Positions 33,287 to 51,908 of a stretch of 64,000 nucleotides of DNA are shown piece by piece; the stretch's first letter is position 1; each line of letters begins with the position of its first letter. The translations under genes and the position numbers were made by a program. Under the pieces are notes generated by a model that was not told the DNA's origin, did not search any database, and saw only the letters and a program-made list of their open reading frames with translations. This DNA comes from a virus, in the IMG/VR virus record IMGVR_UViG_3300047510_002509; one strand, 5' to 3'.

Positions 33287-33469
33287 ATGCCAATGACACC
33301 AGAGGAACTAGAAGCTCACGTAGCAACAGAGCTTGAACTTAAAGCCGAGATTGAGGCTTTGGTGGAACGGCTGCGTAACTCGGAGTACCGAACCAAAACT
33401 GAAAAAGCGTACTACGCAGACCTATTGGCTTCCAAGCGTCAGGAGCTCAGGGTTCACTTGGGCTTGTAG
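33287..33469 (+). CDS. Hypothetical coiled-coil protein
   Basis: 60-aa ORF following the holin. Confidence 0.55.
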   Translation: MPMTPEELEAHVATELELKAEIEALVERLRNSEYRTKTEKAYYADLLASKRQELRVHLGL

Positions 33470-33559
33470 GGGGTAAAAATTTCAGACAACGACCTCCAGC
33501 TTTTCAACGGCAAAAGCGAAGAAGAACCAAACGAACCGCTTATCGACACTCCTGTCGAC

Positions 33560-34474
33560 ATGCGGCCCGACCTGTCCGAATATGGTCTTATAGAACATGA
33601 CCGCGGCATCGTCGAAGATACCTATGAGAACCGCTCCCTCTTGCGAGCGCACTCTTTCCAGTGGGTACCCGTCTATACAGAGAACGGACATCCAACTGGG
33701 TTAATCGAGGCCCGCTCCCTTGAGCAGATGAAGGAACGGCGACTGATGTCGCTGTCCAGCAAAAGGGCCCTTCTCACTGAGCCACTTCAGAATAACTCCG
33801 ACTACTTGACGGGTCTGGATCTGGTTGTAGATTCCGAGGCCTGCAAACTTGTACCTCCTTGGGTACTCGGCGCGACCCGCGCCTATATAAAAGAGCAGGA
33901 AGATGGTGGCCCGCTAACGGCTCGGCGAGCGCCGAAAGCTCTACCCGCCCGCTGCCGTGCGTATACCTCTGAGGGTATCCGCTGTATGTTGTGGTCATCT
34001 GGACGTCTGAAAGATGACGGCTTGTGTCGCCTACACCTCGGCGCGAACAAGAAGACGGGCGCGGACATTGAACGGGCTCGCAAGAAGCTAATGCAATCCG
34101 CACCTTACGCTGTGGACAAACTTGAAGAACTTATGGAGAACGCTGTTTCTGAGCCAGTCAAGCTCAAGGCGGCAACGGAGATTCTCGACCGTGCTGGTAT
34201 TCGTGCTGGTATGGAAATTGATATCGGCGTGGAGCTTAAGGATGCTCGTACCCCCGCTGAGATTATCGCTGAACGGCTTGAGCGTCTGAAAGCTGGAGCG
34301 GTTGTGATTCAAGGCGAGCTCGTTGATCGAACTTCCACACAAGATGCGGAAGTTGTTCTGGAGCTGGATCAGGATCCCCCTAAAATTTTTACCCCCCAGG
34401 CTGAAGCGGCCTCGACATCGGAACAACTTGAAACACCAGCCATATCGGCGGAGGAGCTAGAGGAGCTACAGTGA
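33560..34474 (+). CDS. Terminase small subunit-like protein with Zn finger
   Basis: RC......G.RC...CRLH.G followed by AV..L..L...A.SE.VKL.AA.EILDRAG. Confidence 0.55.
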   Translation: MRPDLSEYGLIEHDRGIVEDTYENRSLLRAHSFQWVPVYTENGHPTGLIEARSLEQMKERRLMSLSSKRALLTEPLQNNSDYLTGLDLVVDSEACKLVPPWVLGATRAYIKEQEDGGPLTARRAPKALPARCRAYTSEGIRCMLWSSGRLKDDGLCRLHLGANKKTGADIERARKKLMQSAPYAVDKLEELMENAVSEPVKLKAATEILDRAGIRAGMEIDIGVELKDARTPAEIIAERLERLKAGAVVIQGELVDRTSTQDAEVVLELDQDPPKIFTPQAEAASTSEQLETPAISAEELEELQ

Positions 34475-34671
34475 CAAACGAACAACTTCTTGAATTGGCG
34501 CAGCGGCACGCAGAGCGTCTGGAAAATGACATCAAGCTGGCCCGCACAAGAGATGAACATATCCGTGTAACGGCACGGGCTAATGAAGCCGCTGAGATGG
34601 TAAACGGCTTGCTGGGAATTAAAGACGGTGAGCCTGACCGCAATAGTCGCGGCATGGGATTTATAGATTAA
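34471..34671 (+). CDS. Hypothetical protein
   Basis: GAGGAG RBS; GTGA coupling. Confidence 0.6.
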   Translation: MTNEQLLELAQRHAERLENDIKLARTRDEHIRVTARANEAAEMVNGLLGIKDGEPDRNSRGMGFID

Positions 34672-34712
34672 TTACTAAACTATGCTAGGTGCTAGCATAG
34701 TTAGTAATTAAT
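34667..34712. repeat. AT-rich 21-bp inverted repeat (cruciform)
   Basis: ATTAATTACTAAaCTATGCTAG-gtg-CTAGCATAGTTAGTAATTAAT. Confidence 0.85.
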
Positions 34713-35156
34713 AGTTTGTCAAGAGGAGAACGGCATGGCTTACGCAGACGGTGACTGTACGAGAGAGCCTATGCCAAAAGACGGCGTGTCAGATATGGAT
34801 GACCTGCTATGACAACGGATTGCTTCTGGTGCGGCGAGGAAGTTAATCGGGACGGCGTGTGCAAAAGCTGCGCAGCAGCCCCATTGCCCGATGCCACCAC
34901 TTCCGAATAACGGCTCGCCCTACAACGAGGTATGCACCCACACTTCCTGTGAAAGCGGCGAGCAACGGCAAGAGATGATGCAGACCCCAGTCACCTGACG
35001 GGTCGGCATGCGCAAGAATTGAAATCATTCTTTAATACTAACGGTATGCACGTAGAACTTAGCCCGTAAGTACAACGGTATGTCGTGTAGTAATTTACAC
35101 CTAAATTACAACGGTAATACTGCAGGAAGGTTTAGCTGCAGCTTAAGATCCGATCC

Positions 35157-35582
35157 CAACTTCCAAATAACTTTGCCAAGCTAGCGGCCTGGCGTTTTCG
35201 CATGAACGCACGAAAAAAGTGCAGGAAAATGTAACCGCTCGGTGACAACAGCAGGTGTACGTACACTCAACATCCAAATAACTTTTATGCAGCCGCAGCG
35301 GATCAGAGCTGTAGGGGGTAAAAATTTCTGATCCATCGGGCCCGAAGCTGTTGAACTTCCAAATAACTTTGGGTAACGGCCCGCCGCCAGATCAGATTTT
35401 TTTACCCCTGAAGCTGCAGCAGCTCCAGATCAGATTCAACATCCAAATAACTCAGTGCACAAAAAATCCGCTGTTCAAAAATCCTTGACAAGACTTGACA
35501 AGGGGTAGTAGGCTAGGTTTCGCAACGCGGGCGCCGCGAAACTAAAAAGGGCCCGATCAGATCTAACTTCCAAATAACTTTT
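35157..35582 (+). repeat. Iteron-like direct repeats AACWTCCAAATAACT (5 copies) in non-coding DNA
   Basis: Copies near 35158, 35269, 35355, 35437, 35565; related copies at 36839, 37083, 37131, 45418, 46049. Confidence 0.75.
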
Positions 35583-35651
35583 ACCATCTCAAGCTGCAGC
35601 ACCAGGTGCACGCCACTTGCGCAGATAAAAAATTTATAATAGAGTTGCGGC

Positions 35652-35948
35652 ATGATAGAGACGCTCATACTGTGGAAGCTTTGGAACATAGAAGACAAAA
35701 TTGAAGGCGAGCCTTCTGGGGAAGATGGGTATCTCTGGATGGTGATGCTCGGTTCTTTGCTCTGGCCTGTTGGTATCTACTTTGTTGTACGTGAATACTT
35801 TGGCAGGTCTAAGTGGCTCGCTCTTTTTGCGGCGGCAGGGATTGGGTTGCTTACCATCCTTGTGCTACCCGTGTATTTACTCATCTCTTTGATTCTGGTT
35901 ATTTACGGATTTTCTTTTCTAGATAAGCTTGACAAAGATGTCAGGTAG
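35652..35948 (+). CDS. Membrane protein, leaderless
   Basis: TAGAGT-6-ATG; hydrophobic. Confidence 0.65.
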   Translation: MIETLILWKLWNIEDKIEGEPSGEDGYLWMVMLGSLLWPVGIYFVVREYFGRSKWLALFAAAGIGLLTILVLPVYLLISLILVIYGFSFLDKLDKDVR

Positions 35949-35958
35949 GTAATAGAAT
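35929..35958 (+). promoter_or_regulatory. Early promoter
   Basis: TTGACA-(TCAGG spacer)-TAGAAT. Confidence 0.8.
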
Positions 35959-36003
35959 AACTAACGGAACAAGAGTTCCATACAAAACGATGAAAGGACA
36001 CCC

Positions 36004-36306
36004 ATGTCAACGATTACAAAAGTAGCGGCTTTACCCCAGTGTGATTTCTGCACAGAGAAGGCCCGCTTTGACGGCATGACTATTTACGGCCCGTGGGGCA
36101 ATATGTGTGAACCACACTTTGATACATACGGCGTCGGACTTGGACTCGGCAAGGGCCAGCGGCTCGTCGAAGAAGGAGAAGATGTTGTGATGTCGTGGGG
36201 CGAGCTCGCGGATCTCAATCACGGCAAGCAGGTAGAACTGTTTGGGTTTTGCACCTGTGAAGACGGCCCGTCTGTGTATGAGGACTGCAACGGAGGGAGG
36301 GACTAA
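36004..36306 (+). CDS. Hypothetical Zn-binding protein
   Basis: GATGAAAGGA leader; CDFC, GPWGNMC..H, GLGLGKGQ. Confidence 0.75.
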   Translation: MSTITKVAALPQCDFCTEKARFDGMTIYGPWGNMCEPHFDTYGVGLGLGKGQRLVEEGEDVVMSWGELADLNHGKQVELFGFCTCEDGPSVYEDCNGGRD

Positions 36307-36423
36307 TGCGCGGATACGTTGAATGGCTTGAGAGCCAAGAGCGAGACGGCTTGGGAACAAGCCACGAAGATTGGATTGACTCGCACCTAGAGAAAGCGGA
36401 TGCGGCACGGGATAGGGAGACGG

Positions 36424-36840
36424 ATGAGACTACCGAATAAGTTGTACCACGCCGCACCTGAGTGCGTGCTCATAAATATTCAAACGGAGGGATTGAAATC
36501 TAACTTCGGAGAAATCTATGCGGCAAGCACTCCAGCGGATGCAATGAACTTTATGTGGTTCAGACTTCTTGACCACCCGCACTACCAGTTCGAGAACGGC
36601 AAGGTAGTCGGCATGGAACTAGAACGGCATGACCGTATCTACGTATTTGAAATTTCAACTAACCGCACAAACAAAGAACGTTGGGAAGTTGGGACGGATC
36701 ACAGCTCAAAATTTTTTGGCGGCGCGGAGAGTTGGGTGTACGGAGGTAAAAATATCGAACGGCGTGCCATAAGCGACATCACATACTTCTCACGAGAGAT
36801 GATTGAAACGGCAAGCAGATCCGCTGCAGCGTCGAACTAA
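36424..36840 (+). CDS. Hypothetical protein, possible ADP-ribosyltransferase/KptA-like fold
   Basis: LYHAA......I..EGL...IY pattern. Confidence 0.55.
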   Translation: MRLPNKLYHAAPECVLINIQTEGLKSNFGEIYAASTPADAMNFMWFRLLDHPHYQFENGKVVGMELERHDRIYVFEISTNRTNKERWEVGTDHSSKFFGGAESWVYGGKNIERRAISDITYFSREMIETASRSAAASN

Positions 36841-36903
36841 CATTCAAATAACTACGGTAAGCCCGTGGAGCTCACATTGAGCCCACGGGTTTATTATTTT
36901 GTC

Positions 36904-37095
36904 ATGGGTAAAAAAGAACGGGATGAACTCAAGCGTCGCATCAAAGGCGTGCCTGGGAACTACGTGCAGAACCAGAAGGCACAGGTCTTTGAAGACCGCC
37001 GCACAAAGCGGCTTCGTACCCGTGGGGTAAAAAACGATAACGCAATTCAAGAATCGTTGATGTCTGATCGCGATCCGCGTCCAACTTCTGAATAA
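36904..37095 (+). CDS. Basic hypothetical protein, leaderless
   Basis: TATTAT-6-ATG; DRRTKRLRTR. Confidence 0.6.
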   Translation: MGKKERDELKRRIKGVPGNYVQNQKAQVFEDRRTKRLRTRGVKNDNAIQESLMSDRDPRPTSE

Positions 37096-37207
37096 CTTGG
37101 CAATGCCGCCAGGGCCCTCCAGGTTGATGGAACTTCCAAATAACTTTCGCTTTTCAAATCTCGCATTTGCTGACTGAACGACACGCCCAAAAAGTTTGAC
37201 AAAGAAC

Positions 37208-37235
37208 TTGACAAAGTGCAGGAAAATAATAGAAT
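37208..37235 (+). promoter_or_regulatory. Early promoter with TGCAGGAA spacer box
   Basis: TTGACA aag TGCAGGAA aataa TAGAAT. Confidence 0.85.
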
Positions 37236-37282
37236 GTATTTTGTCTAGGGTTTCCTAGAAAAGTAGAGTAAGGAAAATAAAA

Positions 37283-37525
37283 ATGGCGACAGTTCAAGAC
37301 CTAATCAAGATGCTTCAAAAAGAATACGACCCAACTCAGGCAATCGTCTTTCAATACTTCACAGCAGAGCACGCTGGACTGGAGGAAGAAGAGTTTGTAG
37401 AAGTTGCAGACTATCTAATGGATAACGACTCATTCGGAGAAGAAACTTCAGAGATGTTTAGTGGCTGGATTACCGAAGCCCAAGATGTTCTAGCAACAGT
37501 AGAAGATGAAGAAGAGGAGGATTAA
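37283..37525 (+). CDS. Acidic early protein
   Basis: AAGGA RBS. Confidence 0.7.
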   Translation: MATVQDLIKMLQKEYDPTQAIVFQYFTAEHAGLEEEEFVEVADYLMDNDSFGEETSEMFSGWITEAQDVLATVEDEEEED

Positions 37526-37527
37526 AA

Positions 37528-37698
37528 ATGACAAATTACAAAATCTATGCGACCCTCACCAGAGAGTATGTGGTTGAGGTAGGCGAAGCACAGAGCGAAG
37601 ATGACGCTATCAACAAACTTGATGACTGGATTTCAGATGACTTCGAGGATTATGAAATCACAGCCAAGTGGGACTTTGTTGCTGTTCCCTCTGAATAA
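37528..37698 (+). CDS. 56-aa acidic early protein
   Basis: GAGGAGG RBS; manual translation MTNYKIYATLTREYVVEV... Confidence 0.65.
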   Translation: MTNYKIYATLTREYVVEVGEAQSEDDAINKLDDWISDDFEDYEITAKWDFVAVPSE

Positions 37699-37701
37699 CA
37701 C

Positions 37702-37730
37702 TTGACAAATAGTCATAAATAAGTAATAAT
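37702..37730 (+). promoter_or_regulatory. Early promoter
   Basis: TTGACA-17-AATAAT. Confidence 0.7.
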
Positions 37731-37775
37731 AGTTTCATCCCGAAAGGGATTTCCAAAACGACGAAAAGAGGAAAA

Positions 37776-38498
37776 ATGCCAAACTGGGTATTCAATACTA
37801 TGTCTATCACAGGAAAAGAAGAAGACCTCAAGAAGTTTGTTGAGAAGGCGAAGAAGCCTCACAACACTTATTGGGAAGACTGGAAAACAAAAGAAATCAA
37901 AGAAGAAATCGACGACAGAGTTATTTCTTTTTGGAACTTCATCAAACCAGAAAACGAGCAACTTTATTTTGGGGCGAGCGATTACAAGCCAGAGGGTTAT
38001 GACCAACTGACTGATGCCGAGAAGATGGCTCTTTCAATGTCATTCAAATCAGATGGTTGGTATGACTGGAACATCCGCAACTGGGGAACTAAGTGGGATA
38101 CAAGCGACCCATACCTTGAAGACAACAGCAAGAAGGGCGAGGTTCAATACCAGTTCTCTACGGCTTGGAGTCCTGCCGAAGGTGCTTACCGAGCAATGGT
38201 TGAGCAACACCCAGAACTGACTTTTGATTTCCACTGTGAAGAAGAGCAAGGCTGGGGCGTGAAGTATGCTGGCGAGAGTGGCGAGTTGGTTGTAGTTGAA
38301 GAGTGGGACATCCCGAACAGCCACGCCGACTACAAAGAGCGTGATAACGAGGACGGATGTGTCTGCTCTTGGGATGCCGACGACCCCGAGAACTGGTATG
38401 ACGACTGCCCAAACAAGGCGGAGCAGGTAGCCAAGTTAGTTGAAGGCACGGAGGAAGTTGTTGCTAAGTTTGAAGACATCAGCGAGATGATTGTCTAA
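37776..38498 (+). CDS. DUF1281/YubB ferredoxin-like domain protein
   Basis: MPNW..N...I.G, GWYDWNIRNWGTKWD, F.TAWSP. Confidence 0.85.
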   Translation: MPNWVFNTMSITGKEEDLKKFVEKAKKPHNTYWEDWKTKEIKEEIDDRVISFWNFIKPENEQLYFGASDYKPEGYDQLTDAEKMALSMSFKSDGWYDWNIRNWGTKWDTSDPYLEDNSKKGEVQYQFSTAWSPAEGAYRAMVEQHPELTFDFHCEEEQGWGVKYAGESGELVVVEEWDIPNSHADYKERDNEDGCVCSWDADDPENWYDDCPNKAEQVAKLVEGTEEVVAKFEDISEMIV

Positions 38499-38589
38499 AG
38501 ACGGCACGGCGTGGGGTGGGGTAAAAAGCCCCACCCTCTGCCGACGGCAGGGTAGGATTGGATTTACAAACGGAAGGGTAAAAAACGGC

Positions 38590-38931
38590 ATGTCTAAAGA
38601 AGAAAACATTGTTGATGCGGAGCTCGTCGCAGGCGAGGATTTCGAGGTAAAAATTATCGATCCGCAGCCTATCGAGCGTAGCTTGCACTACTTCGCGCTT
38701 GACGGGAACTACGGTAACGCGAGTGGCATGCTCGTGCTAGAGACTACGTACTGGAGAGATGTCGACTGGGAGATTCTGGAGTCAGCATCTGATGACCAGC
38801 GCGCCAATGTCGCACGGTTGATTACTGAGTCATACGAGAAGCCTGAAGACATGACGGTGCTGTATGACAAGTTCGAGCAGTACGGTATTGACCTTGATGA
38901 TTTTATGCCGCGAGACCAGCTTGACAGCTAG
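38590..38931 (+). CDS. Acidic hypothetical protein
   Basis: Probable start MSKEENIV. Confidence 0.65.
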   Translation: MSKEENIVDAELVAGEDFEVKIIDPQPIERSLHYFALDGNYGNASGMLVLETTYWRDVDWEILESASDDQRANVARLITESYEKPEDMTVLYDKFEQYGIDLDDFMPRDQLDS

Positions 38932-39095
38932 GCCTCACGTAGGGTAAAAATATAGAACTGCCGCGGGTTTCTTCGTCGTTATCCCGTGTGCCACACCTGA
39001 GCATGTGTAAAAACTGCTCACTATCCTTTTCTGGCGAGCGCCGATGTCCCCCAAAGAGGGGACAGGAAATAAATCAAAAAGTTATTGCGTTCTAC

Positions 39096-39124
39096 TTGAC
39101 ACGATTGCAGGAAGATGCAATAAT
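39096..39124 (+). promoter_or_regulatory. Early promoter with TGCAGGAA box
   Basis: TTGACA cgat TGCAGGAA gatgc AATAAT. Confidence 0.8.
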
Positions 39125-39163
39125 TATCTCAATGCGAAAGCAGAAACGACGAAAGGAAAAATT

Positions 39164-43260: not shown

Positions 43261-43294
43261 AACCTAAAAACAAAACGACGAAAGGCGGGTAAAA

Positions 43295-43744
43295 ATGGAC
43301 GGCATACAACCACTTCTTGACCATGTAGGTGCAGAGGTCGAGTGGGATAGCGGATTACCGATGCACGAAGATAAACGCGATGCGATGTTTTATTGCGATG
43401 GCGGTTCGTCACGATTTGTGGCGAGGGTAAAAATAGCTGAGTTTGCGGTTGATGTTTATTGCGATGGCATCACCGATGTGCGGGACAGAACAAATGGCGA
43501 GCGCTACCGATACGGCGGTGACTTGATAATGAACAACTACACAACGGACGAGTTGCTAAATCAGGCAACCGAAAGCGGAGACCTTGATGTTGTCAATAAC
43601 AGTTGGTTCGATTTGTATTGCGAAGGCGAACACCTTGATACGGTAAGCCACGATGTGTGGGACGCGCTAAGAGATGCAATTACTTTTCTTCAAACGGAAA
43701 AGCAAAACGCTCAGGCGATTGAAAACGTCGGCGTGGATTTCTAA
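43295..43744 (+). CDS. Acidic early protein
   Basis: ACGACGAAAGG leader. Confidence 0.7.
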   Translation: MDGIQPLLDHVGAEVEWDSGLPMHEDKRDAMFYCDGGSSRFVARVKIAEFAVDVYCDGITDVRDRTNGERYRYGGDLIMNNYTTDELLNQATESGDLDVVNNSWFDLYCEGEHLDTVSHDVWDALRDAITFLQTEKQNAQAIENVGVDF

Positions 43745-43754
43745 GGGGTAAAAA

Positions 43755-44240
43755 ATGTCGAGAGTTATTCAGTTGATGTTGGTGGAAGCAGAAACAGCAG
43801 AAGAAGCGGCGAACCATGTGTCAGGCCTTCTTGATAATGAAACCCCTACACCCCATTGGTCGGACTACCATGACCTTGTTGATGAGTTTGATGGTAAGAG
43901 TGCGGTTGCGTATTCAGAAACCATTGGTCAGATAAAACTCAAAGAGTTCCTCGCTTATCGCGAAGCTGATCTGAAAAGATACTATGACAGGGTAAAAAAT
44001 TTCGATCTTGCCAAAGCAGTTGAGAATTACGATCCGTTCCGAGCAGGGCATAGTTTTACGGAAGACGATTTCCGAACTTATGAACTACGCAAACTTGCAG
44101 GTATCTTGGAAGACAGTTGGACTATGGACACAGGCGTCTATGATTTGGAAACTTGGTCAGCAAATCTCAAAGCCTTCAGAGAGCGTTGCCAACTCGCCCC
44201 TGAGATGCAATTCCTAGTTGCGGTGAGTTTCCACCACTAG
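43755..44240 (+). CDS. Hypothetical early protein
   Basis: WSD motif; C-terminal FLV.V.FH. Confidence 0.7.
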   Translation: MSRVIQLMLVEAETAEEAANHVSGLLDNETPTPHWSDYHDLVDEFDGKSAVAYSETIGQIKLKEFLAYREADLKRYYDRVKNFDLAKAVENYDPFRAGHSFTEDDFRTYELRKLAGILEDSWTMDTGVYDLETWSANLKAFRERCQLAPEMQFLVAVSFHH

Positions 44241-45039: not shown

Positions 45040-45130
45040 GACCTAATCCCCCCATTAGGAGCAAGCCCCTCACCCCTCAGGGGTGGGGGGTTTCTTAGTG
45101 GAAAAAAATAAAAGACGAAGAGAGGTAAAA

Positions 45131-45307
45131 ATGACGAAGAGGTATGTTGTTCAGTATTCAGGTTGGGCAGTTGTAGAAGCCAAAGATGAGAAACAGGCTT
45201 CCTATGATGTTGGAACTCTACTTGCCGATAGTGGCTTACCGAACGATGGTGGCGAAGGTGAGTGGCTAATTGACGAAGTCGAACTTGAAGAAGAGGACGA
45301 AGAGTAG
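45131..45307 (+). CDS. Small acidic protein
   Basis: GAGG RBS. Confidence 0.65.
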   Translation: MTKRYVVQYSGWAVVEAKDEKQASYDVGTLLADSGLPNDGGEGEWLIDEVELEEEDEE

Positions 45308-45353: not shown

Positions 45354-45470
45354 GCTTAGATGCGGGGTAAAAATTCCAGGAGCTGCGGCAGCAACAGCAA
45401 ATACCTGCACCAGGTGCAAATAACTTTTCAATGATGCGCCGCTATTTGGTGACATGAACGAACTAGATGC

Positions 45471-45915: not shown

Positions 45916-45928
45916 GCACAAACTCCAG

Positions 45929-45966
45929 AAGACTCCCGTATCGCAAGATGCGGGAGTTTTTCTTTT
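45929..45966 (+). terminator. Intrinsic terminator
   Basis: ACTCCCGTATC-gcaa-GATGCGGGAGT TTTTCTTTT. Confidence 0.85.
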
Positions 45967-46068
45967 GTTGAAGATGCAGCGGATCGCGATCAGTTTTGAG
46001 CTAGGGGTAAAAATTTTGTCCTGGCGGGCCAGGCGCGGATCGTAGATGCAAATAACTTTTCGATCAGA

Positions 46069-46109
46069 CCCTGCGGACCTTGTGGTCCCTGCGGACCTTG
46101 TGGTCCCTG
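46069..46109 (+). repeat. 18-bp tandem repeat CCCTGCGGACCTTGTGGT (about 2.3 copies)
   Basis: Direct reading. Confidence 0.8.
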
Positions 46110-46140
46110 TTGCGCTCGCCGACACGCCAGAAAAATAAAC

Positions 46141-46169
46141 TTGACAAAGTTGCAGGAAGGTGAAATGAT
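46141..46169 (+). promoter_or_regulatory. Early promoter with TGCAGGAA box
   Basis: TTGACA-17-AATGAT; GACACGCC 20 bp upstream. Confidence 0.8.
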
Positions 46170-46273
46170 TCTTTTACACACGGAGTCCAGCAGTGGTCAC
46201 CTGAACGACTTGAACTCTAGAGGGTCGGAAACAAGATGTTGCTCCGTGTGTATCTAAAATGACGAAAGGACAA

Positions 46274-46519
46274 ATGATGGCACAAATGGAAATTACAGAA
46301 AAAGAAGCAGAACTATCTGCGATGGGTATGGCTATGTTGCTTACCTTTATGCAAGAACAAATCAACAAGCACAAGAACCACAAAGATTATTCAATGGACA
46401 AGTTGTTTGCGTTGATGGAGATGTATGCAACGATTGGTGATTTATGGGTGCGGTATCAAATGATTACTGGACTTACAAGAGAAGAAATTGCAGAGTATCT
46501 GCAAGAGCAGGAAGGATAA
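46274..46519 (+). CDS. Hypothetical early protein
   Basis: GACGAAAGGA leader. Confidence 0.65.
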   Translation: MMAQMEITEKEAELSAMGMAMLLTFMQEQINKHKNHKDYSMDKLFALMEMYATIGDLWVRYQMITGLTREEIAEYLQEQEG

Positions 46520-46521
46520 AA

Positions 46522-46653
46522 ATGGACGACATACTAAGAACTGTTTTGCAAGAGGCGAACCAAATTTGTATTGAGTGCGGAAGAAAGTTTGACTTGTTTG
46601 ATGAGGAACAAGCAGCAGAGTGGCACGCTGGACACGATTGTGAGGTGGAGTAA
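46522..46653 (+). CDS. Small Zn-binding protein
   Basis: CIECGRKFDL...EW..GHDCE. Confidence 0.65.
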   Translation: MDDILRTVLQEANQICIECGRKFDLFDEEQAAEWHAGHDCEVE

Positions 46654-46655
46654 AA

Positions 46656-46895
46656 ATGGCAGAGCAGGAGAAGCGCGAGTATCACTTCGTAGTTCGCTAC
46701 GACGCGGACACAGATGAGTTTGACATGGACTACGACACTTTGATGGCAAAGTTTCATGACAGTCCTATCTATGACCCTGAAACAGGAGAGTGGATTAGAT
46801 TGAAGGACACAGACTGGGAGAACGAGGGAACTAATTACAACAACGCGGGTGACGCAATTTGGGACGCGGTAAAAAATCTGAAGTTAAGGAGTTGA
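46656..46895 (+). CDS. Acidic hypothetical protein
   Basis: GGAG RBS. Confidence 0.65.
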   Translation: MAEQEKREYHFVVRYDADTDEFDMDYDTLMAKFHDSPIYDPETGEWIRLKDTDWENEGTNYNNAGDAIWDAVKNLKLRS

Positions 46896-46896
46896 G

Positions 46897-47115
46897 ATGG
46901 AAGAAGCGATTGACGAGATAAATCTTTCTCGAACAGTTTTGTTTGTTGGTGACTACTTCTCAATGATGACAACAGTTGTCCTCGCCGAAGAAAAGCGCGA
47001 GAAAGATGAAGATGACGATGAGTTTGCCATTAGGTTGGCAAAGCAGTTTATGCAGGAGTATTACGGCTGGGACTTAGAAGCAGTATCAAATGAAATAGGG
47101 ATTGTTGAGGAGTAG
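46897..47115 (+). CDS. Acidic hypothetical protein
   Basis: AAGGAG RBS. Confidence 0.65.
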   Translation: MEEAIDEINLSRTVLFVGDYFSMMTTVVLAEEKREKDEDDDEFAIRLAKQFMQEYYGWDLEAVSNEIGIVEE

Positions 47116-47315
47116 CGGCGCTCGCAGCAGTAAATAGAGGGTAAAAATCTGGCTTATTCTAGAACTCCAGCGTCGCGTAGTTGGAGCCTAGCTCGCACGC
47201 CGCTGATGAGGCGGGATTGCTACCCCCTGCCGCACCCTCCTTTGCACCCCCTAGCAGGGGAGGAGTGTCGAGTCCTTCCACATCATCTGCCTGTATGAGG
47301 TTTAGTATTGATGGT

Positions 47316-47561
47316 ATGGCTGAGATTGAAATCCTTGACTCCTCTGTTCACCCAAACCCTGAAGGGGAGAAGTTTGTTGCGGCGTTGATTGATGACGCTA
47401 ATGATGGTCGAGTCAAGTTGGTAATTATGTTTGAGGAAGAAGGCTACACGGCTGTTCTTGACTTGGACTCACTAATTGAAGAAGAAGACATCTCTGCAAA
47501 AAAGCACACACATCTAGGCGGCAGATACGACGCACTCCTGCGTGACCTGCTCTGGGAGTAA
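47316..47561 (+). CDS. Acidic hypothetical protein
   Basis: Probable start MAEIEIL; the upstream part of the track ORF is hairpin-rich UTR. Confidence 0.6.
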   Translation: MAEIEILDSSVHPNPEGEKFVAALIDDANDGRVKLVIMFEEEGYTAVLDLDSLIEEEDISAKKHTHLGGRYDALLRDLLWE

Positions 47562-47564
47562 AAA

Positions 47565-48146
47565 TTGACAACGATGGTTGCGGTTCAAGGACCGACATGG
47601 GCTGTTGTTGGCTGCGATAGCCAAGTTACTGAAGATAATCGCATTTTTGTTCTTCCAAAAGATAATCCAAAGATTGTGAAGAACGGTCCTTTCTTGTTTG
47701 GCGCTGCGGGTGACATGAGAGCAATAAATCTTCTTGCTTATCAGTTCAAGCCACCTGCGCCGCCTGTAAGTTGTTCAGTCAGCAGATTAGATAAGTTCAT
47801 CTCCACAAAGTTCATACCTGAGTTGAAAACCCTGTTTGATGAAGTTCAGTATGGAGAAAAGGGGACGCAAGATTCAGAAATTCTCTGCGTTGTTCATGGA
47901 CACATCTACGAAATTGGGTCTGGATACGATTGGTGTCGCGATCAGACTGGGATTTACGCGTTCGGATCTGGTGGTCAATACGCGTTGGGATCGCTCTACA
48001 ACCAGCTAGAGGGTAAAAAATTGTCCATCACTGCCGCCCGTGCCGCTGTGCGGCGCTCGCTAGAGGTCGCAACAACCTTAGACCCCAACACAGGTGGGTC
48101 GTTCCTCATCACAGTTCAACAAGATGAGTGCCGTCAGCCCAGGTAA
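47565..48146 (+). CDS. Proteasome beta/HslV-like Ntn peptidase
   Basis: N-terminal (M)TT, DSQVT, K, GAAG, GSGG.YALG, D..TGG. Confidence 0.85.
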   Translation: MTTMVAVQGPTWAVVGCDSQVTEDNRIFVLPKDNPKIVKNGPFLFGAAGDMRAINLLAYQFKPPAPPVSCSVSRLDKFISTKFIPELKTLFDEVQYGEKGTQDSEILCVVHGHIYEIGSGYDWCRDQTGIYAFGSGGQYALGSLYNQLEGKKLSITAARAAVRRSLEVATTLDPNTGGSFLITVQQDECRQPR

Positions 48147-48246
48147 CTTTCGTTCCTGCTCTTCTAAACAACTTTTCTAAGTTCCTGCTGGTGCGTCCCC
48201 CATTTGTGATGTTTATCAAATTGTTACATTTTCCTGCATTTTGGAC

Positions 48247-48274
48247 TTGACTTTCCTGCATTTCTGAGTATTGT
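48247..48274 (+). promoter_or_regulatory. Early promoter with inverted TTCCTGCA boxes
   Basis: TTGACT-16-TATTGT; TTCCTGCA at 48231 and 48253. Confidence 0.65.
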
Positions 48275-48310
48275 TATCTATGTAAGGAAAAAACGACGAA
48301 AGGAAAGACA

Positions 48311-48484
48311 ATGCGAGGATTACCAGATAGTGCGGTGTATGGCACATACAAGCGCATAGCAGGTGGCGGTCGCCGTAAGCCAAAGGCTCAGGTCAGTTTG
48401 CTTGAGGTCATTATTGAGTGGCTTGATGGCTACGAGGCTCGCGTAAGAGAAGAAGCAAAACTAAGAAAAATTAGAGGCTACTAA
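48311..48484 (+). CDS. 57-aa basic early protein
   Basis: ACGACGAAAGGA leader; manual translation MRGLPDSAVYG... Confidence 0.65.
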   Translation: MRGLPDSAVYGTYKRIAGGGRRKPKAQVSLLEVIIEWLDGYEARVREEAKLRKIRGY

Positions 48485-48487
48485 GAC

Positions 48488-48517
48488 TTGACAAAGTGCA
48501 GGAAGATGTAATAAACT
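48488..48517 (+). promoter_or_regulatory. Early promoter with TGCAGGAA box
   Basis: TTGACA-18-TAAACT. Confidence 0.8.
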
Positions 48518-48551
48518 TATCCAGTAAGACAAAATGACGAAAGGAAACAAA

Positions 48552-48767
48552 ATGTTTGACAAAGCGATTGAGTTCGTAGGACTAGCAGACACTTCCAAGT
48601 GGAAGCAAGAGCGTAAGTATGTAGTTCGCCGTAATGTGGTGTTCTCTGTCGCGCTCGCGGTTGTGCTATTTGCGGTGTGGCAAGTGTCCACTAATTTGTG
48701 GTGGACAGAAAATGGCTACTGCTGGGGAGATTTGATTTCCTGCAACTTCCCTGAAGAAGGGAAGTGA
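48552..48767 (+). CDS. Small membrane protein
   Basis: GACGAAAGGA leader; TM then LWW...GYCWG. Confidence 0.7.
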   Translation: MFDKAIEFVGLADTSKWKQERKYVVRRNVVFSVALAVVLFAVWQVSTNLWWTENGYCWGDLISCNFPEEGK

Positions 48768-48768
48768 T

Positions 48769-49260
48769 GTGGCAAAGGGTAAAAAAGCTGGAACAACAGC
48801 GCCGACATGGGACGAATTTGTTGAGTGCACGCCGATGGTTGATGGGAAGCCACGACCTGAGTTGTTGCAGGAAGGCGAGACCATGTGGCAGAACAGGTTT
48901 TATGTTGTTTTTAGAACTTACCTAATACCTCATCAGGGACATGATGGACCTATCCATCTAAGCATTAGGCATCAGCAACGCAAGGCGATTAGGGACTGGC
49001 GTCATTTCCAGCGCATCAAAAACGAACTTGCGGGAGCACAAAGAGAAGCAATAGAGATTTTCCCACCAGAAGCCTTGCTGGTTGATGGTGCGAATCAGTA
49101 TCACCTCTTCGTTTTGTCGATGGGAGATACAACCCCCTTCACTTGGAAATCAGGTCGTGCGGTTTCAGGAGAAGAAGGTGGAGAAGAGTTAGAAAGAAAA
49201 ATGCGCGACATGGGTTTTGACCCAAAGCAAACAGTTCAAAGACCAAGAGACGAAGGGTAA
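48769..49260 (+). CDS. Conserved phage hypothetical protein
   Basis: HLSIR, W...Q.IKNE..G....A.E.FP....LVD.AN.YHL. Confidence 0.75.
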   Translation: MAKGKKAGTTAPTWDEFVECTPMVDGKPRPELLQEGETMWQNRFYVVFRTYLIPHQGHDGPIHLSIRHQQRKAIRDWRHFQRIKNELAGAQREAIEIFPPEALLVDGANQYHLFVLSMGDTTPFTWKSGRAVSGEEGGEELERKMRDMGFDPKQTVQRPRDEG

Positions 49261-49262
49261 AA

Positions 49263-49460
49263 ATGAAGAGTCAGCGCATCGCTGAAGAAGCAGCAAAGTT
49301 GTATGTAGATGGTTTGGCAGTTGAGGCAGTAGCCCAGAAGTTGGGCGTTGCCTACAGAACAGCACGCAAAGCCATAAAAGCAAGTGGGATTGAGTTTAGA
49401 GACCCGTCCCAGCGTTTGGTGGGCAGAACCCGCCCAGATAGGAGTATTACCAATGCCTAA
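49263..49460 (+). CDS. Small helix-turn-helix protein
   Basis: LY..G.....VA..LGV.Y.T.R..I...G...R. Confidence 0.8.
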   Translation: MKSQRIAEEAAKLYVDGLAVEAVAQKLGVAYRTARKAIKASGIEFRDPSQRLVGRTRPDRSITNA

Positions 49461-49599
49461 GAACATTGTTTGGACAGCGCTGATTTCGGCGCTCGCAGGG
49501 GCAGGTGCAGTCATCTCTGCATTTGTAGGAGCATCAGATTTCGTGATGGCGTTTGGTGCAGTAGCAATTTCGTCTGCCATCTTGAGTGGAAGAGAGTAA
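49453..49599 (+). CDS. Small two-TM peptide
   Basis: AGGAG RBS; hydrophobic. Confidence 0.6.
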   Translation: MPKNIVWTALISALAGAGAVISAFVGASDFVMAFGAVAISSAILSGRE

Positions 49600-49606
49600 C
49601 TATTAG

Positions 49607-50002
49607 ATGTGGCTATTTACTGATACAGGTTTTGTTAGTGCGGTCGTCTCGAAGGAGAACAGAGAGTTGATTTCTGTTCGTGCTCGCGACAAGAAGTCCC
49701 TTGAGTCATTTGTGAAGATGTTCAAGGTAAAAATCGTGGAACTCCAGAACAGGGACTACGAGTATCGTGTCTACATCACTAAAGAGCAATTGACCAAGTG
49801 GATTTCCACCCGCGTTGAGGAGTTGAACTACGATAACTTCAAGACGCAGGTGACAAAGACCCGTGGCTATGAGTTTGCCGAGCCTCTGCACGGAGTCTGG
49901 TATGAGATGCTCGAGGTGTCCGATAAGCGTAAAAAGACCAAAAAGGGGAGCAGTTTAGGCTCACGCTGGTATGAAGAAGAGCACAGTCTTCCTTACGCGT
50001 AG
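49607..50002 (+). CDS. Conserved phage hypothetical protein
   Basis: MW.FT..GF.SAV, VRAR, DY.YR, Y.NFK. Confidence 0.75.
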   Translation: MWLFTDTGFVSAVVSKENRELISVRARDKKSLESFVKMFKVKIVELQNRDYEYRVYITKEQLTKWISTRVEELNYDNFKTQVTKTRGYEFAEPLHGVWYEMLEVSDKRKKTKKGSSLGSRWYEEEHSLPYA

Positions 50003-50150
50003 TCGGAGTGTCGAGGTTTGACACCCTTTCTGACCCCTGTGCTATGGTTTTACAGATGAAACGACACATTAGACAAAACGAAGGGCGTCCTAGCCCATTG
50101 GTTGCGAGTAACTAGCAACCTGCCCATGTCCCCTAACAAAGGAGAAGCAA

Positions 50151-50804
50151 ATGCGAAACCCTTTATTTCGCCATGCCGAAACCACAGTGTTTGGTGTGAT
50201 AGCAGCAGTGCTAGCAGGAGCAGTCGTGTGGAGCGCGGCAGCAAGTGCAGAAACTAATCGAGTAGATGCAGTAGAAGCAGCAGCCCCCGTTGTTGTTGTT
50301 AATGAAGAAGTGCGGCTATTCAAAGTAGTTGCGGCGAAGATTGACAGAGCTGCGACAGAAGAGAAGAAGCTGCAAGAGGTAAAAAATCTGAAAGCCGAGA
50401 TACAGCTTGAGCTGTTTGAGGAACGAAAAGTCCCTCTAGCTGAGATAGAACTAAAGAACTTACTGAAGTTGGTAGGTTTTGAAGGTCAATCCCTCAAGGC
50501 AGCTTGGGCTATCGTGATGACTGAATCCAATGGTCGTCCAAAAGCACATAATGGGAACGCCTCAACAGGCGATAACTCATACGGACTATTCCAAATAAAC
50601 ATGATTGGTTCTCTTGGAGAGGCTCGTAGAGCCAAGTATGAACTCAAGTCCAATGATGATTTGTTTGACCCAGTAACTAACGCAACCATCGCATACAAGA
50701 TGAGTGCGGGTGGAACTGACTTCTCAGCGTGGAAGGTTAGAGGGTATAATCAAGGTAGTGAGAGATTTAGAACATTTCTCGCTGAATACCCATCAGATAA
50801 ATAA
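50151..50804 (+). CDS. Secreted lytic transglycosylase (SLT/lysozyme-like)
   Basis: Signal peptide; ES.G, SYGLFQIN, L.DP..NA, W. Confidence 0.88.
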   Translation: MRNPLFRHAETTVFGVIAAVLAGAVVWSAAASAETNRVDAVEAAAPVVVVNEEVRLFKVVAAKIDRAATEEKKLQEVKNLKAEIQLELFEERKVPLAEIELKNLLKLVGFEGQSLKAAWAIVMTESNGRPKAHNGNASTGDNSYGLFQINMIGSLGEARRAKYELKSNDDLFDPVTNATIAYKMSAGGTDFSAWKVRGYNQGSERFRTFLAEYPSDK

Positions 50805-50813
50805 AGGATAACC

Positions 50814-51470
50814 ATGAGCGATGAGAAAAACCTAAACGAGGGCACTCATCACCCTGACATTTTGGACCAGGGTGGCGTCAATGTCCCACAAGGTTTCAAC
50901 CCAGATGCAACCGATGGTGATGGTGATGGGTTCGTGCAAGATGGTACCGAGTGGGAGCGTCCCGTTGATGGGTTCAATCCAGATGCCAAAGATGGCGATG
51001 GAGATGGATTTGTTCAAGACGCAACCAAATGGGAACGCCCTGCGGAGCCTGTTGCTGTTGCGGTAGAGCCAGAAACTATTCCAGTAGTGATGGCAGCAGC
51101 TGTTGAAGAAGCAGCTCCAGTTGTAGAAGCAGCTCCAGCTGCACCTGCAAAGAGAAACAAGGGTAAAAAATCCAGCACATCAGCTGTGATCCCAACGGAA
51201 ATCGAAGAAGGATCTGTTGTTCTTCTTTCTAAACTCGTATTTCAGTCAAACACTGAGCAGAACAGCAACTCCGTTCGTGTACTTCAGGCTCGTTTGATGG
51301 AGCATGGCTACATCACTGCTGGTGATGACAAGCCAGGCTGGGTAAGTACGGGAACTGTTGAAGCCCTAGAAGACTACAAGAAAGATAATGGAATCGAAGC
51401 AGATAGTATTTACGCCGAGGACGTCATCAAGTCCTTGTTTGTAGGCACATCAGTTCAAGTTCTTCCATAG
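50814..51470 (+). CDS. Protein with two DGDGDG Ca-binding-like repeats and a PG-binding-like domain
   Basis: GFNPDA.DGDGDGFVQD.T.WERP x2; V..LQ.RL...GY...G.....T..AL..Y. Confidence 0.7.
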   Translation: MSDEKNLNEGTHHPDILDQGGVNVPQGFNPDATDGDGDGFVQDGTEWERPVDGFNPDAKDGDGDGFVQDATKWERPAEPVAVAVEPETIPVVMAAAVEEAAPVVEAAPAAPAKRNKGKKSSTSAVIPTEIEEGSVVLLSKLVFQSNTEQNSNSVRVLQARLMEHGYITAGDDKPGWVSTGTVEALEDYKKDNGIEADSIYAEDVIKSLFVGTSVQVLP

Positions 51471-51483
51471 TTTTACAAGTATC

Positions 51484-51530
51484 AACGCCCAGTATCTCTG
51501 AGAAAATCGGAGTGCTGGGCGTTGGTGTTT
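51484..51530 (+). terminator. Intrinsic terminator-like hairpin
   Basis: AACGCCCAGTA...TGCTGGGCGTT. Confidence 0.6.
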
Positions 51531-51542
51531 TAACGCCAACGC

Positions 51543-51842
51543 ATGGGTACGGACTATGGAAGGGCGGTTCTCATGTCAGCATACAAAATGAGTAAGAAAA
51601 CCTCTGGGATTATGAAAAGAATCCTTGCGGTGTTCTCTGCATCTGGGTTGTCTGTGATTGGTGCTGGTGCTATTGCTGGTGTCGAACTATGGCAAGCAGT
51701 CTTGATGGCAGGTATTGGTGGTGTAGCAACAGTGGTTGAAGCCCTGAGTCGCGCATACCTTACCGATGGCAAGCTCACTGAAGATGAAATTAATGACATC
51801 TTCGTTGAGGCTGAAGCAAAAACATCTAAGAAAGCAAAGTAA
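51543..51842 (+). CDS. Holin-like membrane protein with EF-hand-like DGKL motif
   Basis: RI.AVF....L..IGAGA..G, DGKL...EIN. Confidence 0.65.
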   Translation: MGTDYGRAVLMSAYKMSKKTSGIMKRILAVFSASGLSVIGAGAIAGVELWQAVLMAGIGGVATVVEALSRAYLTDGKLTEDEINDIFVEAEAKTSKKAK

Positions 51843-51908
51843 TTCAGATGTTGGAGGGCCTGGTGATCGGAATTTTTACCCTCCCAGGCCCTCTACTCCC
51901 ATAGCAAA

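Follow-up and report, generated by a model that had tools for sequence, protein, structure and literature searches.

A polar ten-letter word in the early-gene block of an uncultured freshwater actinobacterial phage, tentatively read as a DNA docking site

The 136-kb genome of an uncultured freshwater actinobacterial phage carries a 10-letter word, gGGGTAAAAAw, in about 25 copies within its early-gene block, nearly all of them co-oriented with the genes. The word is enriched, polar and conserved at the nucleotide level both inside and outside reading frames; it recurs with variant spellings across related phages, and its association with the short palindromes GATC and AGCT is maintained. It would be a cis-acting signal of the early-gene block in a large family of uncultured freshwater actinobacterial phages, and we tentatively read it as an orientation-dependent docking site on duplex DNA for a phage-specified transcription regulator, a reading that we hold to be plausible, if short of probable.

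Distribution and conservation of the word

The window analyzed here is a stretch of 64,000 nucleotides. An exact count of GGTAAAAA gave 27 copies in 33,472-51,880, with 24 on the plus and 3 on the minus strand (34386, 35399 and 51873), and 5 further copies in the rest of the window; an earlier note, made from the letters alone, had estimated about 27, 24 of them on the plus strand, and about 4 elsewhere, and the observation proved stronger than claimed. The 32 matches in the whole window compare with 3.6 +/- 1.6 in shuffled sequence, and 27 of the 37 copies in the genome fall in this 18.4-kb block, against 10 in the remaining 117 kb. The copies in the block are the following (signed GATC positions are offsets from the word).

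33472..33479 (+): gene junction, after the TAG stop of 33287-33469 and at the start of gene 33479-34474 (start ATT here, ATG in L001 and L005)
34386..34393 (-): reversed, within CDS 33479-34474; kept in 4/4 relatives; GATC at 34367 and 34373
35317..35324 (+): non-coding repeat array, in the loop of an 8-bp inverted repeat, GGATCAGA/TCTGATCC, 35300-35337
35399..35406 (-): reversed, same array; GATC at +13
36745..36752 (+): CDS-internal, gene 36400-36840, codon frame 1
36907..36914 (+): codons 2-4 of gene 36904-37095, immediately 3' of a terminator-like hairpin
37026..37033 (+): CDS-internal, frame 3
38520..38527 (+): 22 nt past the stop of 37776-38498, within hairpin GGGTGGGG/CCCCACCC
38577..38584 (+): ribosome-binding-site (RBS) type, 5 nt upstream of ATG 38590; L005 carries GGAGAAG instead
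38646..38653 (+): CDS-internal; GATC at +13
38943..38950 (+): intergenic, 18 nt downstream of a conserved TTGACA, 38921-38926
43288..43295 (+): RBS-type, overlaps the ATG at 43295; absent from L001
43426..43433 (+): CDS-internal, frame 3
43747..43754 (+): junction/RBS-type, upstream of ATG 43755; L006 reads GGAGAAAAATG instead
43991..43998 (+): CDS-internal; GATC at -23 and +13
45124..45131 (+): RBS-type, at the window-specific inserted gene 45131-45307, 3' of terminator 45072-45091
45366..45373 (+): intergenic, 19 nt past terminator 45320-45347 and 105 nt upstream of sigma-A-type promoter 45471
46006..46013 (+): intergenic, past terminator 45928-45961 and 135 nt upstream of promoter 46141; GATC at -24, -18, +32 and +56
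46868..46875 (+): 3' end of CDS 46656-46895, 29 nt upstream of the start of the 72-aa acidic protein gene
47140..47147 (+): intergenic, 3' of the 72-aa gene and ~30 nt upstream of a conserved three-hairpin non-coding element; counterpart at the same position in G001 and G002
48012..48019 (+): CDS-internal, HslV-like gene; GATC at -23, -47 and -72
48778..48785 (+): codons 4-6 of gene 48769-49260
49256..49263 (+): junction, contains the TAA stop and the A of ATG 49263; relatives read AGTAAAAATG
49726..49733 (+): CDS-internal, frame 3
50378..50385 (+): CDS-internal, SLT lysozyme-like gene
51162..51169 (+): CDS-internal, peptidoglycan-binding-domain gene; GATC at +26 and +49
51873..51880 (-): reversed, in the loop of a 10-bp inverted repeat, 51856-51895, adjoining bidirectional terminator 51911-51936; GATC at +12

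Across the orthologous sites of four related lineages, identity at positions -1 to +8 is 91-99%, with a baseline of 80%, which delimits a compact footprint of 10 nt with flanks at ~0.75 identity. The conservation persists within genes, at synonymous sites, and 27 of 28 aligned relatives retain the CDS-internal copies, which occur in two codon frames. By class, the CDS-internal and other plus-strand copies are kept in 51/53 cases and the minus-strand copies in 5/6, whereas the RBS-type copies are the least conserved (10/17). Local repetition was controlled for as well: once the core is masked, the islands around the word have no extended similarity in common. The strand-specific, selected signal that the earlier note had proposed is borne out.

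A survey of 80 related IMG/VR loci found the word in 53, with a polar core, GTAAAAA, common to the family (943 plus versus 176 minus); the core is constant, and the 5' letters and accessory words vary by lineage. In G001, the word forms palindromic pairs, TTTTACCCC-N6-TATATATA-N6-GGGGTAAAA, and a 22-nt composite, ATATATA-N5-GGGGTAAAAA.

A putative docking site for a transcription regulator

Several properties favor the docking site. We propose it because the word is enriched in and confined to one co-oriented gene block; because its compact footprint recurs in CDS-internal copies that are placed anywhere in their genes and conserved in two codon frames, with tandem copies 26-70 nt apart; and because reversed copies are conserved and G001 has palindromic pairs. 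The proposal also draws on the search for a -35 or -10 partner at a fixed distance from the word, which found none, on the lineage-specific flanks and spellings around a constant core in 53/80 loci, and on the phage specificity of the word, which was not over-represented in 31 small Actinomycetota genomes. Orientation-dependent, asymmetric multi-copy systems are, moreover, documented in actinophages (PMC9283540, PMC3203893).

The putative regulator would act as host RNA polymerase travels rightward across the block, on that polymerase; many asymmetric sites point with transcription, at gene junctions where they fit and otherwise within genes. Each lineage surrounds the core with its own accessory words, here the short palindromes GATC and AGCT. 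We infer a protein that reads the word, an action on DNA rather than RNA and an effect on transcription. Two proteins of the block bear on its identity.

46897..47115 (+): 72-aa acidic protein with a YGWD motif; word copies on both sides in three lineages
49263..49460 (+): 65-aa helix-turn-helix protein (HTH_23, E 3.4e-5, just under Pfam's cut-off)

The 72-aa protein occurs in 51/53 word-bearing and 0/17 word-free related loci and is a candidate partner by association only, the co-occurrence being confounded by phylogeny. The 65-aa protein is the only DNA-binding candidate recognized in the block, and it is also present in word-free relatives.

The closest parallel in layout is offered by the stoperators of Cluster A mycobacteriophages (L5 gp71, TipsytheTRex repressor), 13-bp asymmetric sites that number more than 20 per genome, are spread genome-wide with an orientation tied to the direction of transcription, lie in short intergenic spaces, overlapping starts and stops, and have lineage-specific spelling (PMC9283540). 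The word shares their number, shortness, asymmetry, transcription-tied orientation, lineage-specific spelling, placement in short intergenic spaces and over starts and stops, and Actinobacteria as hosts. It differs in being 9-10 bp long and confined to one 18-kb early block, in having 10 of its 24 plus-strand copies deep in genes, in its accessory GATC and AGCT, and in that no cognate two-domain repressor or lysogeny module was identified in this phage. Besides the failure to find such a repressor and the presence of the 65-aa protein in word-free relatives, several observations count against the docking site. Operator-like overlap with a sigma-A-type promoter is seen solely at copy 38943, which takes a -10 position, and many copies stand just past terminators, a placement that fits a restart signal better than a block; in G002, moreover, two copies stand in for a sigma-A promoter.

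Promoter and RNA-level alternatives

The word might instead be a minimal phage-specific promoter or initiator, forming a second temporal class over the sigma-A early promoters, which we regard as possible but unlikely. A small phage protein, for example the 72-aa acidic one, would reprogram host RNA polymerase, and transcription would begin at the AT-rich core or right behind it, as with the 8-bp T4 late promoter. The latter, TATAAATA, is used by gp55/gp33/gp45 and is likewise an 8-bp, AT-rich, polar word with no -35 partner, dozens of copies and some copies within upstream genes; however, no gp55-like sigma was found here, the word marks early rather than late genes, and for most of its copies the distance to a start codon is either too long or too short.

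Consistent with a promoter, three lineages have copies 12-45 nt past terminator hairpins, G runs border the AT-rich stretch of the core, and GGTAAAAAT agrees with an extended -10 (TGnTAnAAT) at 6/9 positions in a comparison with DSL-LC01 promoters. The G001 composite, the spacing of copy 38943 from its TTGACA, the position of copy 47140 before a structured element and the distribution of the 72-aa protein point the same way, as do G002 copies 632 and 3910, located 25-31 nt upstream of an ATG that has the usual leader but lacks any other promoter; these two replace a sigma-A promoter before the standard leader. Yet searches for sigma (PF04542), T7-type RNA polymerase (PF00940) and NusG-like genes found none, and the giant virion protein has no polymerase signature. 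Copies abutting an ATG cannot serve that gene under sigma-type geometry, and for ten CDS-internal copies, which are not biased toward gene 3' ends, the next start is 150-500 nt away. Furthermore, the would-be -7 position is A and not T, orthologous sites have no conserved start-site region, and phylogeny confounds the gene-to-word co-occurrence.

A start-associated or processing word in early transcripts, read by the ribosome, a translational regulator or an endonuclease and comparable to the targets of T4 RegA and RegB and to the Cluster K SAS, appears doubtful. Word polarity does track the coding strand, 6 of the 24 plus-strand copies form the ribosome-binding region and two more directly follow the start codon (6-8 of all 27 copies are start-associated), a GGAG Shine-Dalgarno at times takes the place of the word in relatives, and the long operon 48.5-51.9 kb has about one copy per cistron. 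Copies abutting start codons, about a quarter here and apparently a larger share in other lineages, suggest a role in translation and count against a docking site; among the sampled copies listed for other lineages (at most six per locus), about half end at ATG, even without a G-rich Shine-Dalgarno (AGCAAAAAGTAAAAATG). On the other hand, RBS-type copies are the least conserved class, reversed copies are conserved, and only read-through would bring the copies past a terminator into RNA.

The earlier note had placed several copies in the loops of inverted repeats and suggested an RNA loop cut by a RegB-like nuclease. A perfect enclosing stem of at least 8 bp is present at 3/27 copies (35317, 38520 and 51873) against 1.4% of random positions, so the loop context is real yet a minority feature; the stems at 38646 and 43991 are bulged and not kept in relatives. 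The nuclease target is accordingly weak, given rare and unconserved stems, retained minus-strand copies and the palindromic DNA pairs of G001, and a general RNA-loop signal is not supported.

In Cluster K, the SAS (GGGATAGGAGCCC) lies 3-8 bp upstream of start codons, with 6/125 inside ORFs, and the function of SAS/ESAS is still unknown (PMC3203893; PMC12699233). The likeness extends to a conserved, asymmetric core that keeps a single orientation within the non-structural portion of the genome, to partial overlap with the ribosome-binding region, and to flanking imperfect inverted repeats at about half of the sites, with a consensus varying by sub-lineage; start-associated copies are, in contrast, a minority and the least conserved class here.

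GATC, AGCT and the avoided palindromes

GATC is the presumed target of a phage Dam enzyme, whose specificity is assumed from its protein family; the earlier note was right that a Dam-like methylase is encoded.

3949..4383 (-): phage-type Dam N6-adenine methyltransferase gene (PF05869, E 1.9e-26)

The depletion of GATC that the earlier note described was confirmed (61 in the window versus 203 expected; genome observed/expected 0.31), including a GATC-free stretch from 38,663 to 43,967. Within the block, 23/31 GATC sites lie within 70 bp of the word; in a rigid-cluster permutation test of GATC-to-word distance the mean was 5.8 and 0/5000 permutations reached the observed value, and 13/15 GATC clusters are near the word against a null of 4.0. 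Measured against expectation, GATC numbers 23 versus 12.8 near the word (70 bp) and 7 versus 56.8 far from it, a contrast that holds inside CDS (5.9 versus 0.33 per kb). The clustering of AGCT and GCWGC also stood, with 30/51 and 18/37 near the word at 18.8% near-word coverage. At about twice their neutral expectation there, GATC and AGCT exceed what relaxed avoidance would give: selection keeps both beside the word, though they have been purged from the remainder of the block.

Dam-gated regulatory islands, in which the flanking GATC would be the working part and its methylation state would decide activity, are improbable. The Dam gene, the near-far contrast, the preferred offsets (+13 and -23 to -26) and an association that persists in relatives through GATC turnover all agree with them. 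Most copies, however, lack a GATC at any constant position, individual sites are no more conserved than random 4-mers, AGCT is equally islanded although no matching methylase was found, and in G001 and G002 the word is retained but GATC is not enriched. The Dam-dependent GATC clusters of P1 pac, Mu mom and the IS10 promoter likewise concentrate GATC in a few functional sites of Dam-encoding or Dam-using elements, but their GATC positions are fixed and essential, whereas those here turn over and AGCT behaves alike. What survives of the Dam-sensitive sites in the earlier note are the offset peaks and the lineage-private GATCs, 12/15 of which are again near the word; a Dam-sensitive role may exist, though only as an accessory layer particular to the lineage.

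Islands shielded from restriction (an option of the earlier note), Chi-like anti-exonuclease sites or strand-specific nick sites are very unlikely: a polar 8-mer concentrated in a block where many 4-bp palindromes are avoided more strongly than elsewhere in the genome might suit first-entering DNA, but a shield should let every avoided word return to neutral levels near the core, where CCGG, the most avoided, numbers 0 versus 10.8 expected, ACGT, GTAC, TTAA and TATA are still depleted and GATC and AGCT are above neutral, and G002 has the word with zero GATC. A Chi-like role is not supported, as the host over-representation that it predicts is absent in the 31 genomes (a weak test, the host not being established) and high per-site conservation and junction placement are unlike Chi.

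The earlier note had further placed about 30 of the 31 block GATCs near either the word or a partner motif, AAATAACT; the proximity is real and the count slightly high, with 28/31 near GGTAAAAA or AAATAACT. The partner motif is represented as follows.

35158..35582 (+): five co-oriented AACTTCCAAATAACTTT copies in a ~1-kb non-coding region
36839, 37083 and 37131: starts of three more AACTTCCAAATAACTTT copies

The early-gene block and its word

The source genome (136,029 bp, a single IMG/VR record rated complete by CheckV), of which the window spans bases 61,687–125,686, encodes a portal, terminase, ribonucleotide reductase, primase-helicase, MoxR-type ATPase, VWA protein, and HslV-like peptidase with 45% to 76% identity to those of phage DSL-LC01. 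The latter is a 129-kb metagenome-assembled Actinomycetia phage from a freshwater lake (PMC10611076). The early-gene block (about 33,460–51,890), in which reading frames were set by substitution periodicity against four relatives, comprises approximately 37 small rightward genes flanked by leftward replication genes on one side and head genes on the other. It contains 9 to 10 strong sigma-A-type promoters (TTGACA-N17-TAnAAT, with GCAGGAA within the spacer) and several intrinsic terminators. The leader AACGACGAAAGGA-N5-8-ATG is common to this phage and DSL-LC01, where it follows a different promoter, GATTCTAAAGATGTTATAATAGAATC, with about 20 occurrences.

Sigma-A-type promoters of the family cTTGACAAAGtTGCAGGAAgatG-AAtAAT, each followed by the leader
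37208, 39096, 44264, 44569, 45471, 46141, 48488: plus strand
52944: minus strand

Among polar 8-mers in the block, GGTAAAAA ranks first; it is part of the word gGGGTAAAAAw, and the footprint of this asymmetric 8-mer is 10 nt. It has 32 matches in the window versus 3.6 expected, and 27 of the 37 copies genome-wide fall in the 18.4-kb block (33,472–51,880), 24 of them on the plus strand, in agreement with the manual count of the earlier note. Ten of the 24 plus-strand copies are internal to coding sequences (CDSs) and 6 are of the ribosome-binding site (RBS) type; most copies lie either 0–1 nt or 150–500 nt from the next start, and the MoxR-VWA operon (39.1–43.2 kb) is free of them. Among block copies, 38943 alone overlaps a TTGACA-N17-TAnAAT promoter, and no -35, -10, or start codon partner with a constant spacing to the word was found. 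Several copies had been placed in the loops of inverted repeats, which is true of 3 of the 27 for perfect enclosing stems of at least 8 bp (1.4% of random positions) and does not extend to the word in general: the overall stem distribution resembles background, and the bulged stems that enclose two further, CDS-internal copies are not retained by relatives. Hairpin enclosure as a general feature was accordingly rejected.

Two further observations concern the left part of the rightward genes. A 331-aa gene (60% identity to DSL-LC01) has an apparent ATT start at 33479–33481, immediately 3′ of a word copy; its frame is open from 33470, and ATG occupies the ATT position in the comparison loci L001 and L005. 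The first rightward genes (29.7–33.4 kb) lack the word and carry repeats of their own, TAGTGTATAGT (three copies) and AAAAACTT (six copies) in 30700–31010, suggestive of a distinct class of promoters that is active earlier.

Conservation of the word across phages

Enrichment and polarity of the word recur in all eight syntenic IMG/VR loci compared, which represent four lineages with 68% to 87% protein identity and 75% to 85% DNA identity. Over the ten-base span -1 to +8, identity at orthologous sites is 91% to 99%, versus a block-wide baseline of 80% and about 75% in the flanks. One-mismatch variants are confined to the G run, TAAAAA never being altered, and third-codon positions beside CDS-internal copies vary freely while the copies persist. 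In RBS regions, some relatives substitute a plain GGAG Shine-Dalgarno sequence. Selection on the word acts at the nucleotide level and overrides codon choice.

Exact 8-mer kept at orthologous sites, by class of copy
CDS-internal (10 copies, two codon frames, any gene position): 27 of 28 aligned relatives
Other plus-strand copies: 24 of 25 aligned relatives
Reversed copies: 5 of 6 aligned relatives
Copies acting as ribosome-binding regions: 10 of 17 aligned relatives

Two contigs at a greater distance, G001 and G002, also have the block, at 40% to 60% protein identity, and are rich in the word. The word is constant across lineages with a 40% to 60% protein difference. Most copies in these contigs lie 3′ of terminator hairpins and about one quarter adjoin a start codon. 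The flanks differ by lineage, with GATC and AGCT words here, TATATATA in G001, and CCCTAGGG in G002; in G001, ATATATA-N5 precedes the word and palindromic pairs around TATATATA are frequent, and G002 spells the word CCCCTAGGGGGTAAAAATTTCAGGG. Such lineage-specific accessory words amount to a natural experiment on how a signal and its reader co-evolve.

We surveyed 80 loci around the HslV-like gene, out of 469 IMG/VR relatives. The core GTAAAAA, spelled GGGGTAAAAA, GAGGTAAAAA, or AGCAAAAAGTAAAAA, was present in 53 of them, with a median density of 10 per 10 kb on the strand of the genes versus 1.7 on the opposite one (943 versus 176 in total), and about half of the copies sampled in other lineages end at an ATG. 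Across the 80 loci, word density showed no trade-off with the density of extended -10 promoters. The word was absent from 17 more distant survey loci and from the 50 kb of DSL-LC01 examined, early block included; these word-free sequences have higher GC, and GATC is undepleted in them (5.8 per kb versus 0.73 per kb). The phages, whose hosts are among the most abundant bacteria of fresh water, cannot so far be cultivated, and the word offers a sequence handle on their gene regulation. A literature search with the word sequence itself returned nothing relevant.

In 31 small Actinomycetota genomes, a host assignment that is itself tentative, the 9-mer GGGTAAAAA occurred 0 to 31 times per genome (at most 16 in all but one), no more often than its reversed control word. 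The word is not a host word, because the 9-mer is not over-represented there. A host search via ribonucleotide reductase yielded phage-like contigs binned into unrelated MAGs. In one of the 31 Actinomycetota genomes (G029, 1.5 Mb), an island (locus L060, G029:C1:472000-488000) holds four co-oriented word copies within 1.6 kb, one of them in the hairpin loop of ACGCTCA/TGAGCGT. It neighbors homologues of block genes and also holds a VWA protein, a sigma-region-4-like helix-turn-helix (HTH) protein, and a 41% homologue of phage gene 49607–50002. The island may derive from a phage and hint at the host.

Word copies in the L060 island
7561: word copy
7679: word copy
8979: word copy
9151: word copy

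GATC and other palindromes around the word

GATC occurs at 0.31 of expectation genome-wide and is absent from 38,663–43,967, bearing out the depletion and the gap reported before. Of the 31 GATCs in the block, 23 lie within 70 bp of a word copy; when GATC clusters were permuted as rigid units, the mean was 5.8 and none of 5000 permutations reached 23. Counting proximity to AAATAACT as well gives 28 of 31, so the association claimed in the earlier note stands and its figure of about 30 is lowered. The clustering also withstands control for local repeats: once the core is masked, no long stretch of similarity unites the islands, and duplication of a single repeat therefore does not account for it. 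A long-repeat origin of the islands was rejected. Within coding sequence, GATC reaches 5.9 per kb near the word versus 0.33 per kb far from it.

Palindromes near the word (within 70 bp; 3,456 bp in total) and far from it (14,975 bp)
GATC: near, 23 observed versus 12.8 expected; far, 7 versus 56.8
AGCT: near, 30 observed versus 12.8 expected; far, 20 versus 56.8
CCGG: near, 0 observed versus 10.8 expected; far, 4 versus 44.8

AGCT and GCWGC gather around the word, as had been noticed by eye, and CCWGG does likewise. The genome avoids no word more strongly than CCGG (0.15 of expectation), and ACGT, GTAC, TTAA, and TATA remain depleted near the word. Preferred GATC offsets are +13 and -23 to -26, and GATCAGA and (C/G)AGCT(G/C) are recurrent forms. 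Individual GATCs turn over, with 39 of 81 aligned sites kept versus about 50% for random 4-mers, and GATCs in relatives again lie near a copy (22 of 27, 20 of 25, and 12 of 16), as do 12 of 15 lineage-private ones. GATC and AGCT beside the core point to positive selection, beyond relaxed avoidance, in islands specific to this lineage.

The block as a whole differs from the rest of the genome in its observed/expected ratios for ACGT (0.28), ATAT (0.23), TATA (0.30), TTAA (0.25), and GTAC (0.33), versus 0.76 to 1.05 elsewhere. This palindrome avoidance might resemble that of DNA which enters the cell first.

Candidate readings of the word and neighboring elements

We tentatively read the word as a DNA docking site for a phage-specified regulator of transcription: a putative phage protein would dock on the word in DNA and act on transcription of the block. 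This reading is preferred because it fits most of the facts and has a documented precedent in actinophages (PMC9283540). The facts are a compact asymmetric footprint; strong, incomplete co-orientation with transcription; tandem and palindromic pairs; copies at junctions, 3′ of terminators, and anywhere in genes; conserved reversed copies; restriction to one co-regulated block with a copy-free MoxR-VWA operon; and lineage-specific flanks. Cluster A stoperators are likewise short, asymmetric, and numerous (more than 20 copies of a single site, compared with 27 here), and their orientation correlates with transcription, as in 24 of 27 copies here and in the 53 survey loci. They differ in occupying promoters and short intergenic spaces genome-wide, whereas the word is confined to 18.4 kb with ten copies deep in CDSs. 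The Cluster A repressor is a monomeric protein of about 180 aa with an HTH and a stoperator domain; here, Pfam and PHROGs scans of about 50 plus-strand early-region proteins yielded a 65-aa HTH protein (49263–49460) as the sole candidate regulator. On the docking-site reading, the stoperator and SAS/ESAS theme would reach past cultured mycobacteriophages.

That the word is a minimal promoter class is possible, if rather doubtful. It would suit the post-terminator copies, two G002 cassettes, and the AT-rich core, and a 72-aa acidic protein (46897–47115) is found in 51 of 53 word-bearing and 0 of 17 word-free loci, a figure confounded by phylogeny. Structure models of this protein (pLDDT 87) and of the 131-aa protein at 49607–50002 (pLDDT 72) gave no convincing fold match, and a protein atlas search returned unnamed clusters only. 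Start-abutting and deep CDS copies fit a promoter poorly, as does the absence of a fixed-distance -35 or -10. Six-frame family searches of the whole genome matched neither sigma-70 region 2 (PF04542) nor a T7-type RNA polymerase or NusG/NGN. A T4-type late promoter relies on a phage sigma of the gp55 type, and its word lies shortly upstream of the genes served, in contrast to the spacings of most copies here. In a giant virion protein of the head operon (3137 aa, 58367 to beyond the window end), a RenU-like Nudix domain (E 1e-9) and a segment resembling exonucleases were recognized, and no RNA polymerase signature was found.

An RNA-level signal, start-associated or for processing, appears unlikely. 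It would suit junction copies, which are apparently commoner in other lineages, but leaves reversed and palindromic copies unexplained. The SAS/ESAS of Cluster K share with the word a subset bearing lineage-specific flanking inverted repeats (three perfect and two bulged here), and differ in consensus (GGGATAGGAGCCC) and placement: their core lies 3–8 bp before starts and rarely in open reading frames, whereas 6 of 24 copies here are of the RBS type and 10 are CDS-internal.

Methylation by Dam is improbable as the main mechanism and plausible as an accessory layer. The phage does encode a Dam, as the earlier note proposed (PF05869, E 1.9e-26); for Dam, both DSL-LC01 (complete genome) and four partial relatives were negative. 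Whole-genome six-frame searches matched no D12-class Dam, N6_N4 methylase, or C5 methylase, and DpnII-family enzymes, as possible host restriction enzymes, were not found among the 61 Actinomycetota genomes searched. Dam-regulated GATC sites hold fixed conserved positions, whereas here individual GATCs are unconserved and only the offset peaks recur. The word and its GATC ring could, at long odds, act as an epigenetic switch coupled to replication: the core would be read by a phage factor, the Dam state of nearby GATCs would mark DNA as parental or new, and the early block would go off, or a second program on, at replication onset. What selection maintains would then be the density of GATCs around each core, not fixed positions, from which GATC turnover and the extreme purge elsewhere in the block would follow. 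Accessory GATC and AGCT words, purged elsewhere in the block, together with an encoded Dam make it possible to test concretely for methylation-linked control in an actinophage of virulent type. A restriction shield, Chi, or nicking role is, taken jointly, highly improbable, given, for the shield, the CCGG deficit and the persisting depletion of ACGT, GTAC, TTAA, and TATA near the word and, for Chi, which is over-represented and strand-skewed in host chromosomes, the counts of GGGTAAAAA in the tentatively assigned host group.

Two elements of the block deserve separate mention. About 1 kb with little coding signal (34672–35650) looks like an origin or regulatory hub; it contains a palindrome with 21-bp arms (34672–34716), ACAACGGTA three times at 35040–35115, the 17-bp AACTTCCAAATAACTTT five times at a spacing of 84–127 bp, two oppositely oriented word copies, 10 GATCs, and one short reading frame.

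34811–34912: 33-codon CxxC...CxxC open reading frame

Rfam and tRNA scans of the whole window gave no matches, including for a conserved, three-hairpin non-coding element about 120 nt long (47150–47290), 3′ of word copy 47140 in all lineages. Alignment of the window with comparison loci L001, L006, L007, L030, and L043 revealed compensatory changes at eight predicted pairs of this element, which includes CTGATGAGGCGGG and could be a small RNA or a 3′/5′ UTR element.
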